A stretch of 64,000 nucleotides of DNA, from NCBI GenBank assembly GCA_964479045.1, contig CAYZJI010000012.1, forward strand, positions 9,321 to 73,320. The letters are read 5' to 3'. The notes under the pieces were generated by a model, which saw only the letters and a list, made by a program, of their open reading frames with translations, had not been told where the DNA came from and ran no database searches. Below, one piece after another: positions 2,306-45,038 of the stretch (position 1 is the stretch's first letter; every line of letters begins with the position of its first letter). The translations under genes and the position numbers were made by a program. The stretch is from an uncultured Enterobacteriaceae bacterium (lineage in GTDB: Bacteria > Pseudomonadota > Gammaproteobacteria > Eutrophobiales > Eutrophobiaceae).

Positions 2306-3824
2306 CCGTCATCTGTATATTCTTGCGGGTCTGCTGTTTGCGACAGGTCTTGGCCTGTTTCTCTACAAGGCCATTTATCTCGGGTTCCCTTTGCTGCCGG
2401 GGCAGAAAACGGATGTGTGGGAAGTCGAGATCAAAATGAATTTCAATGCCAGCGAGCGGCCGGTCAAGGCGTTGTTATATATCCCCCGTAACTCCGCGGA
2501 TTTTTCGATTGTAAACGAGAACTTTATTTCCAAGGGATACGGCATTTCCATCAGCACTCTGGATGGTAACCGTCAGGTAGCATGGTCCATCCGCTCGGCC
2601 CGCGGCCAACAGACGCTTTACTATCGTGCCATGATCGAAAAGATGGTGGTAATTGATCGCCCTGCGACCAGCTCCAGAAATATCGAGGTGGTTCCTGCAG
2701 ACTATGAAGGTGCTGACCTCGAAGCGGCCAATGCCATCCTGCAGGAAGCCCGGCAGAAATCGGCTGATCGCATCACCCTGGTGCTGCAGCTCATGGACAT
2801 CATCGAAAATTATACGACAAACGATAATGCCGGACTTCTGCTCAAGGAGCATCCAACCCAGCAGAAGAAAATTGAAACCATGATCAAGATACTTTCACTG
2901 GACGGTATTCCAGCCCGGCTGGTGCATGGACTGCGAATGGTAGAGCAATACGGCAAGTCTGATCCCATTACCTGGCTCGAAGTCTATGTCGAAGATAAAT
3001 GGCTGCCCATCGACCCGGTGACCCGCCAGACCGGCCAACTCAGCGATTATCTGGTGTTGTGGAAAGGCACCGACCGGATGGTGAACCTGACGGGTGGTGA
3101 TAATCTTGACGTGGATATCAATATCCAGAAGTCCGGCCTGGAAAGTATCACTGCAGCAAGCACACGCGAACGGACTATCAGTCCGGATTTTTCCCGCTAC
3201 TCATTATTGAATCTGCCGCTCGATACCCAGCGCGTGTATAACATCCTGCTGACAGTACCGGTGGGCGTGTTTCTGCTGGTGTTGTTGCGTAATATTATCG
3301 GCATCAAGACCTTCGGCACGTTCATGCCGATCCTGATCGCGCTTGCTTTTCGCGAAACACAACTGGTGTCCGGGTTGATTCTCTTCTGTATCCTGATCGC
3401 CGCCGGTCTGGCGATAAGGTTTTATCTGGAAAAACTCAAACTGCTGCTGGTGCCACGCCTTGCTTCTGTGCTGATCATCGTCATCATGCTCATGTTGTTC
3501 ATGAGTATTGTCAGCCACAACATGGGGATCGAAAGTGGTTTGTCCGTGGCCCTGTTCCCGATGGTGATTATCACCATGACCATCGAGCGCATGTCGATTG
3601 TCTGGGAAGAACGCGGGGCCAACGAAGCCATCAAGCAAGGCATCGGCAGTCTGATAGTTGCTGCCGCAGCTTTTATGATCATGAGCCTGGATGTGGTGGA
3701 ACATCTGACCACTGTATTTCCGGAACTGTTGTTCATCCTGTTGTCCATCACTATCCTGCTGGGACGTTACTCCGGGTATCGTCTGCTTGAGCTGCACCGG
3801 TTCAAGGCCCTGGTGAGCAAGTAG
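2298..3824 (+). CDS. Inactive transglutaminase-like protein with C-terminal 7TM domain
   Basis: GIPARLVHG..TWLEVY..WLPIDP transglutaminase-like core with no catalytic Cys/His visible; multi-TM C-terminus (GIKTFGTFMP, LFPMVI..TIER). Confidence 0.85.
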   Translation: MNNRHLYILAGLLFATGLGLFLYKAIYLGFPLLPGQKTDVWEVEIKMNFNASERPVKALLYIPRNSADFSIVNENFISKGYGISISTLDGNRQVAWSIRSARGQQTLYYRAMIEKMVVIDRPATSSRNIEVVPADYEGADLEAANAILQEARQKSADRITLVLQLMDIIENYTTNDNAGLLLKEHPTQQKKIETMIKILSLDGIPARLVHGLRMVEQYGKSDPITWLEVYVEDKWLPIDPVTRQTGQLSDYLVLWKGTDRMVNLTGGDNLDVDINIQKSGLESITAASTRERTISPDFSRYSLLNLPLDTQRVYNILLTVPVGVFLLVLLRNIIGIKTFGTFMPILIALAFRETQLVSGLILFCILIAAGLAIRFYLEKLKLLLVPRLASVLIIVIMLMLFMSIVSHNMGIESGLSVALFPMVIITMTIERMSIVWEERGANEAIKQGIGSLIVAAAAFMIMSLDVVEHLTTVFPELLFILLSITILLGRYSGYRLLELHRFKALVSK

Positions 3825-3826
3825 TC

Positions 3827-4774
3827 ATGCTGTCTCTGGCCGGAAAACTCCATGCTGCCGGTGTTATGGGTATCAACCAGCGTAACTGTGATTACACGCT
3901 GGTCTACAATCCACGCAAGTTTTATCCACTTGTGGATGACAAGCTGCGAACCAAGCAACTGGCGCTGGATGCGGGAATTGCCGTACCGGAGTTATACGGT
4001 GTGATCGAAATCGAGCACCAGATCCGTGAACTGCCTGAGTTTCTCAGGAAATATTCTGATTTTGCGTTGAAGCCTGCGCAGGGTACCGGGGGTGAAGGTA
4101 TCGAAATTATCGTTGGCAAGGTCAAGCATCTCTACAAAAAAGCCAATGGCCAGTTTGTGACTGAAGAGCAGCTCCAGCATCATGTGTCGAATATTCTGAA
4201 TGGCCTGTTCAGCTTGGGCGGTCATGAAGACAAGGCCATTATCGAATACCGCGTCAAGTTTGATCCGGTGTTTGATGCGATCAGCTATCAGGGTGTGCCG
4301 GACATCCGCATCATCGTCTTCATGGGTTTCCCGGTTATGGCGATGATCCGTCTGCCCACCCACATGTCCGGTGGCAAGGCCAACCTGCATCAGGGAGCGA
4401 TTGGTGTTGGTATTGATATTGCCTCTGGCCGGACACTGAATGCTGTCTGGAAGAATGATGTCATCATCGAGCATCCGGACACGCACAATCCTGTTACAGG
4501 TTTCGAAATTCCGAGATGGGATGATTTGTTGTTGATTGCGGCAAAATGTTATGAGCTCACCGGGCTTGGCTATCTGGGGGTGGACATCGTGCTCGATCGG
4601 ATAAAAGGTCCGTTGATTCTGGAGATGAATGCCCGGCCCGGACTCAATATCCAGATTGCCAACCATCGCGGCCTGCTGCACCGGCTGGAATTTATTCGTG
4701 CCAATGCCCGCCGTCTGGGCTGTGTTGAGGACCGTGTGGCCTTTTCCAAAAAAATGCTCACCCGTGTACCGTAA
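3827..4774 (+). CDS. Alpha-L-glutamate ligase-like ATP-grasp protein
   Basis: VDDKLRTK, FALKPAQGTGGEGI, GVPDIRII, KANLHQG, YLGVDIVLD and ILEMNARPG ATP-grasp motifs. Confidence 0.9.
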   Translation: MLSLAGKLHAAGVMGINQRNCDYTLVYNPRKFYPLVDDKLRTKQLALDAGIAVPELYGVIEIEHQIRELPEFLRKYSDFALKPAQGTGGEGIEIIVGKVKHLYKKANGQFVTEEQLQHHVSNILNGLFSLGGHEDKAIIEYRVKFDPVFDAISYQGVPDIRIIVFMGFPVMAMIRLPTHMSGGKANLHQGAIGVGIDIASGRTLNAVWKNDVIIEHPDTHNPVTGFEIPRWDDLLLIAAKCYELTGLGYLGVDIVLDRIKGPLILEMNARPGLNIQIANHRGLLHRLEFIRANARRLGCVEDRVAFSKKMLTRVP

Positions 4775-10879: not shown

Positions 10880-10956
10880 TGGTGGCTATGGGTAGACTCG
10901 AACTACCGACCTCAGCATTATGAGTGCCGCGCTCTAACCGGCTGAGCTACATAGCC
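10880..10956 (-). tRNA. tRNA-Met (elongator, CAT)
   Basis: GGCTATGTAGCTCAGCCGGTTAGAGCGCGGCACTCATAATGCTGAGGTCGGTAGTTCGAGTCTACCCATAGCCACCA; 77-nt cloverleaf, paired G1-C72, encoded CCA, acceptor stem like elongator tRNA-Met. Confidence 0.93.
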
Positions 10957-42069: not shown

Positions 42070-42330
42070 TCAGATTCCCATATTGCTCAACGTCACCATG
42101 ATGTCATTCATGATGGCGGTGGCGCGGGGATGTTCCGCCTCAAAGTGTTGAATCGATTCCCTGAGATTGTCGATTAACCCCTCGTTTTCATCTTCCGGAT
42201 TGTCAAGTTTGATTTCCAGTTCACTGATAAGCTGGTTCAGACGTGACCTTGATTCTGAATCATCAGAGGCCAGATGATTTATTTCATCACGCAGGCGTTC
42301 AAGAGAGTCTTGTAGTTTCTTTCTGTACAT
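42070..42330 (-). CDS. DUF4404-like small protein
   Basis: Ends FEAEHPRATAIMNDIMVTLSNMGI; start 42330, because the track start lies inside the tRNA. Confidence 0.85.
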   Translation of the reverse strand: MYRKKLQDSLERLRDEINHLASDDSESRSRLNQLISELEIKLDNPEDENEGLIDNLRESIQHFEAEHPRATAIMNDIMVTLSNMGI

Positions 42331-42355
42331 ACTGATTAAAGTTTTAGCACATATT

Positions 42356-42666
42356 TGGTGGGCCCGGTAGGACTTGAACCTACGACCCATGGATTCTCTT
42401 GTCCCAGCATTACTGATGGGGGAGGACTATCTCATCACCCTCAACCGGATTGTTAGGGCGCGGGACGCTCGTGCCTGTTATCAAGAACACTGAAGTTCTC
42501 AGGTAGTCTCTGCACCTTCCGGAAGTGTACTTCCGGCTTGGCTCAGGATTGCCATCAGTTATACTGATATGGTTTCCCTGAATTCATCCCGTTCATTTCA
42601 TATCTTTCGATATGAACGCACCTTCTTTGATGAGTCCACTGCTCTAACCAACTGAGCTACAGGCCC
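42356..42666 (-). tRNA. ileX: tRNA-Ile2 (CAT, lysidine type) interrupted by a group I intron; exon 1 = 42666-42630, exon 2 = 42395-42356
   Basis: Spliced GGGCCTGTAGCTCAGTTGGTTAGAGCAGTGGACTCAT|AATCCATGGGTCGTAGGTTCAAGTCCTACCGGGCCCACCA folds as a 77-nt cloverleaf; position after rpoD matches ileX synteny. Confidence 0.9.
42396..42629 (-). ncRNA. Group I self-splicing intron, 234 nt, no ORF (IC3-like)
   Basis: Inserted after the CAT anticodon; 5' exon ends in U, intron ends in G; P (AAUUCAGGGAA), Q (AAUCCUGAGCC), R (GUGCAGAGACUA) and S (GAUAGUCC) elements; P7 GACUA/UAGUC; P3 GGGAUG/CGUCCC. Confidence 0.93.
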
Positions 42667-42727
42667 AAATATTTTTTAAATTTTATCAGGTTTTAACACC
42701 ATGGTTACTAAATATTATTATATAATC

Positions 42728-42751
42728 AGATTATGAAAAATTTCATAATCT
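42728..42751. repeat. Perfect 10-4-10 inverted repeat upstream of the HNH gene
   Basis: AGATTATGAA-AAAT-TTCATAATCT, immediately after TATAAT (42721-42726) and before AAAGGA. Confidence 0.8.
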
Positions 42752-42766
42752 ATAAAGGAATATTGG

Positions 42767-43138
42767 ATGAAAAAATGTGTAAATTGCCAAAAAGGTCTCC
42801 GGGGAAGACAAACCAAATTTTGTTGTCGCAAATGCAAAAACATATACAACAATCTTAATTACCAATCGTATCTTGCACAGCAAAAACGCGGTAAGGATAG
42901 AAAGCTGGAGTTGATAAAACTCAAAGGCGGCAAGTGTGCACGATGTGGATACGATAAGAATTTTTCTGCATTGGAGTTTCATCATCCAGCGCCGAATGAA
43001 AAGGAATTTCAACTGGATTTGAGGTCGCTTTCCAATCGGAAATGGGACGTAATAATAAATGAAGCAAAGGAGTGCTTGTTACTTTGTTCAAATTGTCATG
43101 CTGAACTACATCATCCGGAATGCAGGTTAAGAGCATAA
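42767..43138 (+). CDS. Free-standing HNH endonuclease with N-terminal zinc-finger-like module
   Basis: CVNC..KFCCRKC N-terminus; CARCGY...ALEFHH...KECLLLCSNCHAELHH core; about 40% GC by hand count. Confidence 0.85.
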   Translation: MKKCVNCQKGLRGRQTKFCCRKCKNIYNNLNYQSYLAQQKRGKDRKLELIKLKGGKCARCGYDKNFSALEFHHPAPNEKEFQLDLRSLSNRKWDVIINEAKECLLLCSNCHAELHHPECRLRA

Positions 43139-43152
43139 CCTGCGTTTCTGAC

Positions 43153-43187
43153 AAACCTTCCTGGACTTAATCCAGGAAGGTTTTCAG
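43153..43187 (+). terminator. 13-bp perfect hairpin with the rpoD stop codon in the loop; likely terminator between HNH gene and rpoD
   Basis: AAACCTTCCTGGA-CTTAA-TCCAGGAAGGTTT followed by TCAGTT on the + strand. Confidence 0.65.
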
Positions 43188-45038
43188 TTGCTCGGAACGC
43201 GAGGGGTGACGCAGTTTGCGTAACGCTTTGGCTTCAATCTGACGAATACGCTCACGGGTCACATCAAACTGTTTGCCGACTTCTTCCAGAGTGTGATCGG
43301 TATTCATGTCGATACCGAAACGCATACGCAGCACTTTGGCTTCACGTGGAGTAAGGCCTTCCAGTGCTTCACGGGTGGTGCGACGCAGACCTTCAATCCC
43401 GGCCGAATCACTGGGCGCGAGTATGTTCAGGTCTTCAATGAAATCACCCAGATGTGAATCTTCATCATCACCAATCGGGGTTTCCATTGAGATCGGTTCT
43501 TTGGCGATCTTCAAGACCTTGCGGATCTTCTCCTCCGGCATTTCCATTTTTTCTGCCAGTTCTTCCGGTGTCGGTTCGCGGCCCTTTTCCTGCAGGATCT
43601 GGCGTGAGATACGATTGAGTTTGTTGATGGTCTCGATCATATGCACTGGTATACGTATGGTGCGGGCCTGATCGGCGATGGAACGCGTAATGGCCTGACG
43701 TATCCACCAGGTTGCGTAGGTTGAGAATTTATAACCGCGCCGGTATTCGAACTTGTCTACGGCTTTCATCAGGCCGATGTTTCCCTCCTGGATCAGATCA
43801 AGGAACAACAGACCGCGGTTGGTATATTTTTTGGCAATGGAGATCACCAGACGCAGATTGGCTTCCACCATTTCCTTCTTGGCGCGACGTGCTTTGGCTT
43901 CGCCGATGGAAATCCGGCGGTTGATTTCCTTGATGTCACTGATACTCAGGTCATCAACAAATTTTGCCGCCAGTGCTTCCTGGATGCGAATGATATCTTC
44001 CTGCAGTTCCTTGATGTTTTTTGCATAAGGTTTGCTGCGGGATTTGGCCAGAGTCTTGGTCCATTGCGTATTGATTTCATTCCCTGGGAACAGGGTTATG
44101 AATTCCTTGCGCGGCATTTTGCCCAGCTTGACACAAAGATTCATGATGTCGCGCTCGGCGCCACGAATCACCTCTATCAAGTGCCGCACGTTATTGGTCA
44201 GAATGTCAATAAACTTGGGGGCCAGCCGCAAACTCAGAAAAGTCTGGCAGAGTTCATTCTGCAGTTCCCGGGATTTTTTATGTGCGCGGCCATTGCGCTT
44301 GATGGCCCGTACCAGCTTGGTGTTGATTTTTTCAATGGCTTCGATGTGCGCACGAACTTCCTCCGGATCGAGCATGGCTTCCGGTTCTTCTTCACTCTCG
44401 CCGGATTCGTTTTCTTCGTCATCATCATTATCATTACCAGCACTTGTGGCCAGACGTGGCTCACCATCAGCATCTACCGGCATATGGCCGCTGTCCGGAT
44501 ATTCCTCGGTGTCATTGAAACCCAGAATGATGTCACTGAGCTTGATTTCTTCTCTGGCAATCGAATGATAGTTTTGCAGCAGGGTATCGATGGTGCCCGG
44601 ATAACAGGCGAGCGCTTCCAGTACCTGGTTGATGCCTTCCTCAATGCGCTTGGCAATCTTGATTTCGCCTTCACGGGTGAGCAGATCAACCGTGCCCATC
44701 TCGCGCATATACATGCGTACCGGATCAGTAGTGCGGCCAAATTCGCTTTCGACACTGGCCAGTGCTGCTGCCGCTTCAGCCGCTGCTTCTTCATCCGGAC
44801 CTTCAGTGCTGTCGGTCATGATGATTTCAAGATCGGGCGGGGATTCATACACAGTGATCCCCATGTCATTAATCATGTTAATGATGTCTTCGATCTGCTC
44901 TGGATCGACAATATCGTCCGGCAGATGGTCATTGACCTCGTGATAGGTCAGGAAGCCCTGCTCCTTACCTTTGGCGATCAGTACCTTCAGTTGCGACTGG
45001 TCGTCTTCTTGCTCAATCTGCTCAATATTATTTTCCAT
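43167..45038 (-). CDS. rpoD: RNA polymerase primary sigma factor
   Basis: Regions 1.1-4: [57 protein letters not shown]. Confidence 0.99.

Follow-up and report, generated by a model that had tools for sequence, protein, structure and literature searches.

We analysed a stretch of 64,000 nucleotides from an uncultured Enterobacteriaceae bacterium (contig CAYZJI010000012.1, positions 9,321 to 73,320), called the window in the following, in which a small gene for a putative HNH endonuclease lies beside a transfer RNA (tRNA) gene, ileX, that is split by a group I intron. The original prediction for this DNA had placed an HNH gene with a zinc-finger-like N-terminus 100 bp from the split tRNA, divergent from it and between rpoD and ileX, and every one of these elements was recovered where it had been described (Table 1). 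The HNH gene starts exactly 100 bp from the 5' end of the tRNA gene, and its open reading frame (ORF) ends 28 bp short of the stop codon of the convergent rpoD gene, behind which dnaG follows. The intron, which had been said to encode nothing, contains no ORF of at least 40 amino acids, and the spacer is as AT-rich as had been claimed. The proposed contrast in base composition stood for the HNH gene, with 38.7% GC against a claimed value of approximately 40%, and did not stand for rpoD, which has 50.5% rather than about 55% in a window of 50.3% overall; the argument from GC content is weaker to this extent. In intronless genomes of the same synteny the gap between the rpoD stop codon and the tRNA has a median of 134 nt compared to 500 nt in the window, and the HNH cassette is therefore an insertion. 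The hairpin between the two convergent genes is probably a terminator common to both.

Table 1. Features of the rpoD-ileX region of the window (positions count from the first nucleotide of the window).
Feature	Position	Strand	Basis
tRNA-Ile2(CAU) gene, intron-split	42356-42666	-	ARAGORN, introns allowed; 234-nt insert
3' exon of tRNA-Ile2(CAU), AATCCATGGG...CCCACCA, 40 nt, CCA encoded	42356..42395	-	ARAGORN and exon reading
Group I intron, ORF-less, 234 nt, terminal G	42396..42629	-	Rfam RF00028 and boundaries read from the exons
5' exon of tRNA-Ile2(CAU), GGGCCTGTAGCTCAGTTGGTTAGAGCAGTGGACTCAT, 37 nt, ends in U-1	42630..42666	-	ARAGORN and exon reading
Spacer, 100 bp, 18% GC, with divergent promoter-like sites	42667..42766	.	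GC count; consensus scan
Promoter-like TTAACA-17-TATTAT, would serve the HNH gene	42693-42721	+	Consensus scan match only
Promoter-like ATGAAA-18-TATAAT, would serve the tRNA gene	42746-42717	-	Consensus scan match only
Perfect 22-bp palindrome GATTATGA-AAAATT-TCATAATC, putative target-mimicking operator	42729..42750	.	Repeat scan
Free-standing HNH endonuclease gene, 123 amino acids and stop	42767..43138	+	ORF; PHROG match
Four-cysteine zinc-ribbon-like N-terminal module: C4, C7, C19, C23	42776..42835	+	Invariant alignment columns
HNH (His-Me finger) core: C57, C60, H72-H73, N90, C107, C110, H111, H115	42935..43111	+	Invariant or nearly invariant columns
Perfect 13-bp hairpin between HNH gene and rpoD, overlaps the rpoD stop	43153..43183	.	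Repeat scan
rpoD, conserved neighbour defining the rpoD-ileX site of the HNH insertion	43167..45038	-	ORF

The exons read GGGCC...GGACTCAT and AATCCATGG...CCA on the two sides of the intron. The spliced-out order is GGGCCTGTAGCTCAGTTGGTTAGAGCAGTGGACTCAT, the 234-nt intron and AATCCATGGGTCGTAGGTTCAAGTCCTACCGGGCCCACCA, with the junctions CTCAT/CAAAG...AAGAG/AATCC, and the intron therefore sits after the anticodon CAU. The insertion follows anticodon position 36, between U36 and A37 at position 5 of the anticodon loop, and in the Rfam alignment the U at position -1 forms a U.G wobble pair of P1. The Rfam group I intron model RF00028, whose gathering score is 50 bits, matches positions 42403-42639 of the minus strand over its full length (1-253) with 80.4 bits (E 7.6e-19); at related loci the scores range from 57 to 87 bits. 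Once spliced, the window tRNA has its best Escherichia coli matches in genes annotated as tRNA-Ile (82% identity). By its sequence the window intron is a classical Azoarcus-type group I intron (IC3, site Ile2.5Ug), where Ile2.5Ug is a site class name from a survey of bacterial tRNA introns; with the Azoarcus-type tRNA-Ile(CAU) intron it shares the host tRNA, the site after CAU, U-1, the terminal G, the small ORF-less size and the Rfam match (10.1101/2020.01.27.920355). Run without introns, ARAGORN missed the split tRNA; run with introns, it recovered the gene but put the splice site in the wrong place and assigned the anticodon to Leu, Gln or Ser, and the boundaries were set by hand. The window contains a second tRNA with the anticodon CAU, a tRNA-Met without an intron at 10880-10956 of the minus strand.

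The protein encoded beside the intron matches PHROG families annotated as HNH endonuclease (E 1.6e-22 and 1.4e-18), and full-length homologues at 60-77% identity are found in more than 400 database clusters. In alignments of these relatives H72, H73, N90, H111, H115 and the two CxxC pairs (C57, C60; C107, C110) are invariant or nearly so, and the window protein keeps every invariant catalytic and zinc-binding residue. Residues 57-113 give a weak match of 13.2 bits to Pfam HNH_2, under the cutoff of 21, and the NCBIfam library gave no match to the protein. The AlphaFold model has a predicted local distance difference test score (pLDDT) of 93.9, structure prediction having been run on database proteins. 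The best fold matches in the PDB are HNH nucleases (Cap5, Gme HNH, Cas9 HNH and T4 Endo VII), all of them weak with E values of at least 0.1 and TM-scores of approximately 0.3; neither sequence nor fold searches found a close relative among solved structures, and a PDB profile search returned a weak match to the HNH domain of McrA and nothing else.

To follow the HNH family through other genomes a profile-based scan of approximately 186,000 species genomes was used, which found HNH relatives in 371. We classified the best 80 of these 371 loci, and all counts of placements given below refer to this set. Two loci are cut by a contig end and could not be assessed. At 76 of the remaining 78 the HNH gene is found at an intron-split ileX: in 63 cases upstream of it and divergent, as in the window, in two cases downstream of it by 35-60 nt and co-oriented (L175, L179), and in 11 cases nested antisense inside the ileX intron. 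The last two (L163, L198) have no tRNA or intron nearby. The three placements have only the interrupted tRNA in common, and the HNH gene remains beside the tRNA where rpoD is not adjacent (L039, L111, L112). An earlier genome scan had given 12 true homologue loci with a group I intron immediately adjacent in 11. As the same gene and the same intron recur in dozens of other genomes, a chance association is excluded.

The opposite counts were obtained from two further searches. Uninterrupted ileX genes were collected through the 20-nt anticodon arm GCAGTGGACTCATAATCCAT, which is present in at least 120 species of many phyla; among the matches listed, none of the 120 intronless ileX loci with this identical anticodon arm has an adjacent HNH gene. 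Introns were collected through a 20-mer from the core of the window intron, again from at least 120 species, mostly gammaproteobacterial, a conservation which is indirect evidence that introns of this class splice themselves, and 88 of these loci were assessable. Eighteen carry a full HNH gene and six a truncated copy where the gene would be expected, and 64 have none, so that a full or decayed HNH gene occurs at 24 out of 88 intron-bearing loci compared to 0 out of 120 listed intronless loci (Fisher p = 3e-9). The correlation between HNH gene and intron on which the original prediction relied was thus found, in the direction that an HNH gene implies an intron while an intron is usually without an HNH gene. 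What can be kept of the proposed joint unit is that the HNH gene occurs almost exclusively at the intron; what cannot be kept is a strict pairing, since the intron is much more widespread than the HNH gene and the two are therefore not an obligate unit.

Some single loci of this survey deserve description. The two intact HNH homologues without a tRNA or intron within 1.5 kb (L163:1501-1914 and L198:1333-1851) have different surroundings: that of L163 adjoins a 341-amino-acid ORF with an HNH-like motif of its own, the intron-split ileX of that genome being on another contig (L095), and that of L198, from a member of the Gracilibacteria, adjoins a 482-amino-acid ATPase-like ORF and keeps the palindrome described below at its start codon. 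In a metagenome-assembled genome (MAG) of Armatimonadota (L005) a free-standing HNH homologue (3995-4408) lies upstream of a tRNA(CAU)-like gene (3824-3945, minus strand) at a distance of 50 nt. The anticodon loop of this gene holds a 49-nt insert, CTCA/cggagaag...cttctccgcaag/TAATCC, which contains an inverted repeat of 8 bp but lacks a group I core. The insert still interrupts the presumed target; it may be what a deletion left behind, a pseudogene, or a small insert of unknown kind. Contigs from MAGs labelled Bacteroidota or Halobacteria (L148, L149, L167) were considered as cases of wide transfer and rejected. They carry an rpoD of the gammaproteobacterial type, with a C-terminus approximately 90% identical to that of the window, and the arrangement of rpoD, HNH gene and intron-split ileX is gammaproteobacterial as well; they are probably binning errors and not transfers across domains.

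A further hint towards the function of the protein arises from the spacer. The palindrome lies directly 3' of the -10-like box of the HNH gene and 17 bp ahead of its start codon, and it overlaps both divergent promoter-like sites. Its half-site TCATAATC is identical to the intact anticodon loop of ileX together with the first stem bases (cTCAT/AATCc). The same arrangement, GATTATGA-N6-TCATAATC, is found upstream of 40 out of 117 distinct HNH genes if up to two mismatches of 16 are allowed in the 117 unique upstream regions, and in none of the dinucleotide shuffles; the gap is always 6 nt. The 8-N6-8 palindrome is present in gammaproteobacterial copies, in copies from the candidate phyla radiation (CPR) and in phage copies, it overlaps the start codon in the nested ones, and a sequence logo restricts its conservation to the eight half-site positions. 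Inspection by eye of the intact ileX gene for a second palindrome half-site gave a match at only 2 of 8 positions on either side.

The nested copies are found in CPR bacteria, Chloroflexi, Acidobacteria, one Rhodothermales genome and others. Their HNH ORF occupies the antisense strand between the 5' exon and the catalytic core of the ileX intron, and by position, as read from the sequences, they are canonical intron-borne endonuclease genes. The intron that carries them is inserted between U33 and C34, 3 nt upstream of the window site, and free-standing HNH genes go with introns between U36 and A37. Both intron positions split TCATAATC. Taken together, the nested copies and the palindrome half-site point to the uninterrupted anticodon region as the likely target. 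In a Pyrinomonadaceae genome (L014, 3689-4130, minus strand) a tRNA(CAU) has a 369-nt intron between U33 and C34 which contains no more than a 23-amino-acid antisense match to the HNH C-terminus and looks like a nested nuclease gene that has decayed almost wholly. A leftover 5' exon 3' of the HNH stop codon, as expected from a move of a nested copy to the free-standing position, was looked for in the window, where only the putative rpoD terminator hairpin is present. Transfer between phyla by way of nested loci was also considered; the two loci in question (L004, L010) share flanking genes, may be relatives or a binning error, and could not be used.

On predicted viral contigs the closest relatives have 49-62% identity over the full length and stand free within tRNA arrays, without an intron and very often as the immediate neighbour of a tRNA(CAU). 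A more distant HNH relative follows straight after a tRNA-Met in a cultured E. coli Vequintavirus. The neighbour-joining tree, midpoint-rooted, built from a short protein and without support values, suggests that the phage copies are basal and that the nested copies form two clades among the free-standing bacterial ones. Beside the phage HNH gene on two contigs (L218:3368-3458 and L219:3368-3458, minus strand) stands a tRNA(CAU) of 91 nt with a long extra arm, unusual for Met or Ile2, and its anticodon arm TCATAAAC differs from the operator half-site at two conserved outer positions. The second of these predicted phage contigs also holds a group I intron (L219:3600-3930, minus strand; Rfam 59.3 bits, 3689-3890) in another tRNA of the array, with the exons ...ACAGACTT and AAAATCTGT..., i.e. 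a tRNA-Leu(UAA) split between U34 and A35 at the classical cyanobacterial and chloroplast site. In a 2014 review every phage intron then known is placed in a protein-coding gene (PMC3984707). Two further viral contigs with large tRNA arrays carry near the HNH gene a transfer-messenger RNA (tmRNA; L229:2457-2787, 65.7 bits) and a permuted tmRNA (L230:3583-3834, 53.8 bits).

We consider it probable, from the arrangement and distribution of the sequences, that the HNH protein is a homing-type nuclease which targets intronless ileX and that the intron is its immunity. The sporadic distribution of the HNH gene with decayed copies and its association with a presumably self-splicing element are what is expected of a homing endonuclease gene, and an ORF-less intron next to a free-standing endonuclease gene, which recurs at 63 out of 78 loci, is the arrangement known from collaborative homing. 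The most economical account, a somewhat broader form of the original prediction, would be a family of small homing-type nucleases specialised on the anticodon region of tRNA(CAU). The window protein would then be a small endonuclease that naturally targets DNA of the tRNA-Ile2(CAU) gene in the anticodon-loop region where this is uninterrupted. The intron would split this target after CAU and leave the host's own, presumably essential, ileX uncut, and splicing would restore the tRNA; in bacteria the nuclease could persist only where a self-splicing intron interrupts the anticodon region of tRNA(CAU). An intronless ileX that encounters DNA with HNH gene and intron would be cleaved, and recombinational repair would then give the recipient a copy of the intron together with the HNH cassette, which lies only about 140 bp away; this is collaborative homing. 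The window may represent the free-standing stage of this process. After fixation the nuclease would become dispensable and often decay while the intron stays, which would explain why so many genomes have the intron alone and why remnants exist. A further probable binding site of the nuclease is the palindrome at its promoter, the half-sites of which copy the target, and the nuclease may in this way limit its own expression. Cleavage target, intron immunity, co-conversion and autoregulation are what we infer from these observations.

Several observations weigh against this account. Approximately 73% of the assessable intron-bearing loci have no HNH gene. The Pfam match is below its cutoff and the fold matches are weak. 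The half-site contains CATAAT, a -10-like hexamer, so that the palindrome may represent promoter elements standing back to back instead of an operator. Three phage copies (L220, L225, L227) adjoin a tRNA(CAU) that still carries TCATAATC, and the recognition site must therefore comprise more than this 8-mer; in the tRNA-Met of the window the anticodon arm is TCATAATG, one base away from the palindrome half-site. Intact HNH copies have a ratio of nonsynonymous to synonymous substitution rates (dN/dS) of 0.05-0.12 in pairs with unsaturated synonymous change. These low values indicate that the intact copies are functional, and purifying selection of this strength is not expected for a fixed, purely selfish nuclease unless re-invasion is frequent.

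The pattern of inheritance belongs to the same side. Across 47 gammaproteobacterial loci, HNH identity follows rpoD identity (Mantel 0.46) as well as it follows intron identity (0.44), and where HNH pairs are most similar, their hosts hardly differ in rpoD. No clearly transferred module was found among these 47 loci when HNH or intron identity exceeding rpoD identity was looked for. In the visible gammaproteobacterial history vertical descent therefore prevails and loss is frequent, and a recent joint spread of nuclease and intron is not evident. Intron-bearing and intronless species occur side by side within Luteimonas (L034 and L066 versus L300) and within Sedimenticolaceae (L202 versus L296), from which it follows that shallow gain or loss has occurred. 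One must also keep in mind that the exclusive association still needs another explanation if the homing account is wrong.

One such explanation is that the target does not span the intron site and lies in another part of the tRNA or in flanking intergenic DNA, the intron being a passenger that is co-converted or common in the same lineages rather than the source of immunity. Phage relatives that adjoin intronless tRNA genes indicate that other routes to immunity exist in the family, and T4 SegB is a known free-standing nuclease of a tRNA cluster (PMC2330249). We regard this as unlikely, since no HNH gene was found at the 120 intronless ileX loci listed, the association spans three placements and two intron positions, the position of the nested copies implies that the intron site is targeted, and the palindrome half-site is the very sequence split by both intron positions. 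That the HNH gene is an inactive or decaying relic of a once intron-borne endonuclease, kept by descent without present activity, would agree with the mostly vertical inheritance in Gammaproteobacteria and with remnants and degenerate copies such as L090, which has substitutions at conserved Cys positions. For the window copy we hold this to be very unlikely in view of its complete set of invariant catalytic and zinc-binding residues, the low dN/dS, the perfect promoter palindrome and the confidently predicted fold. An action on RNA, as a maturase-like splicing cofactor of the ileX intron or as a protein that binds or cleaves the anticodon loop of tRNA-Ile2, would account for the tight association with the intron-bearing tRNA and for a conserved half-site which, as anticodon-loop sequence, also exists as RNA. 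It appears extremely unlikely to us: most intron-bearing genomes manage without the protein, introns of the Azoarcus-type class are known to self-splice, the phage relatives have no intron, an HNH fold with a pair of zinc sites is characteristic of DNA nucleases, and the palindrome lies in the DNA upstream of the ORF.

A function for which the host retains the gene is conceivable in view of the strong purifying selection and the vertical signal. The HNH protein might be a domesticated nuclease that cuts foreign DNA with intronless tRNA(CAU)-type genes (phage tRNA arrays, plasmids, islands) while the intron marks ileX for self-protection, or it might regulate the transcription of ileX from the shared divergent promoter. 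A dN/dS of about 0.1, HNH divergence that follows the host phylogeny, an operator-like palindrome overlapping both divergent promoter-like sites, and the abundance of tRNA(CAU) genes and of HNH relatives in phage tRNA arrays are all in its favor. The loss of the HNH gene from most intron-bearing genomes and the six decayed remnants speak against a general benefit for the host, and the locus, with rpoD, dnaG and a DUF4404 gene as neighbours, shows no defence-island context (PADLOC was not searched); we judge domestication improbable. A more specific version, which we hold to be slightly less probable still, sees intron and HNH gene as a device for distinguishing self from non-self that the host keeps: the intron would mark and shield the only ileX copy of the host, the nuclease would destroy incoming intact anticodon arms of the tRNA(CAU) type, for example from phage tRNA arrays, and phages would answer with variant anticodon stems and nuclease copies of their own. 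If this were true, a group I intron would be an immunity element in a defence-like system and not just a selfish passenger. The DUF4404 gene itself lies downstream of the tRNA (42070-42390, minus strand; Pfam E 3.8e-20); its longest ORF starts at 42390 and overlaps the 3' exon of the tRNA, and the true start is probably the ATG at 42330.

The collaborative homing proposed here has its models in phages. In cyanophage S-PM2 an ORF-less group I intron of psbA adjoins the free-standing F-CphI gene, and in T4 mobE acts with the nrdB intron in trans homing (PMC2988022, PMC2790892). The window resembles both in that an ORF-less, presumably self-splicing group I intron adjoins a free-standing endonuclease gene, and the same logic would apply: the intronless allele is cut, the intron interrupts the site, and repair copies both. 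It differs from them in its host gene, a chromosomal bacterial tRNA gene instead of a phage protein-coding gene, and in its nuclease, a zinc-ribbon HNH protein of 123 amino acids compared to the Endo VII-type motif given for F-CphI (PMC6083498). Unlike in S-PM2 and T4, the HNH family of the window also occurs nested in introns and free in phage tRNA arrays, so that several proposed stages exist side by side.

Nucleases associated with tRNA genes are known from several families: I-Ssp6803I, a PD-(D/E)XK enzyme, has its gene within the intron in sense orientation, SegB belongs to the GIY-YIG enzymes, and the F-Tfl enzymes of T5 are free-standing homing endonucleases of phage tRNA gene clusters, of the HNH type. 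The window family differs from I-Ssp6803I, which according to a cited title is the endonuclease of a cyanobacterial tRNA-fMet group I intron (PMC3984707, reference 105), in being HNH, in the location of its genes, which lie outside the tRNA gene or else within the intron in antisense orientation, and in its tRNA, which is Ile2. Its phage relatives stand between tRNA genes in arrays like T4 SegB, which lies in the T4 tRNA cluster and drives the preferred inheritance of that cluster (PMC2330249); an intron goes with the bacterial HNH copies but not with those of the phage tRNA arrays. With respect to regulation, T4 I-TevI represses its own promoter through an operator resembling its homing site (PMC2988022). 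The window has likewise a sequence resembling the presumed target at the promoter of the nuclease gene, which differs from the I-TevI case in being a symmetric 8-N6-8 palindrome, a putative operator by its sequence, and in belonging to an HNH enzyme.

The intron class, collaborative homing in S-PM2, trans homing in T4 and free-standing nucleases in phage tRNA clusters are thus already known. In the literature we found no paper that mentions an endonuclease neighbour for the Azoarcus-type tRNA-Ile intron class, and no description of an HNH gene linked to a tRNA-Ile intron, in a search from which subscription-only papers were largely absent. Collaborative homing at a bacterial chromosomal tRNA gene was not found either in this search, where the papers using the term all dealt with phages, viruses or organelles.

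A selfish partnership of nuclease and intron has so far been described only in phages, and the association in the window fits such a partnership. On the basis of a couple of phage examples, collaborative homing has been put forward as the way in which mobile introns arise from the merging of ORF-less introns with free-standing nucleases. In the present case one HNH family is found in all the predicted stages: free in phage arrays, beside an ORF-less intron of bacterial chromosomes in two placements, and nested in an intron 3 nt away. With hundreds of natural replicates and with decayed copies, the model can be tested by comparative genomics and by biochemistry on a protein of 123 amino acids. 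The family offers a compact zinc-ribbon HNH protein for which a half-site of 8 bp is predicted and which may regulate itself through an operator. If correct, the homing account would help to explain the spread and persistence of the Azoarcus-type tRNA-Ile intron in Proteobacteria.

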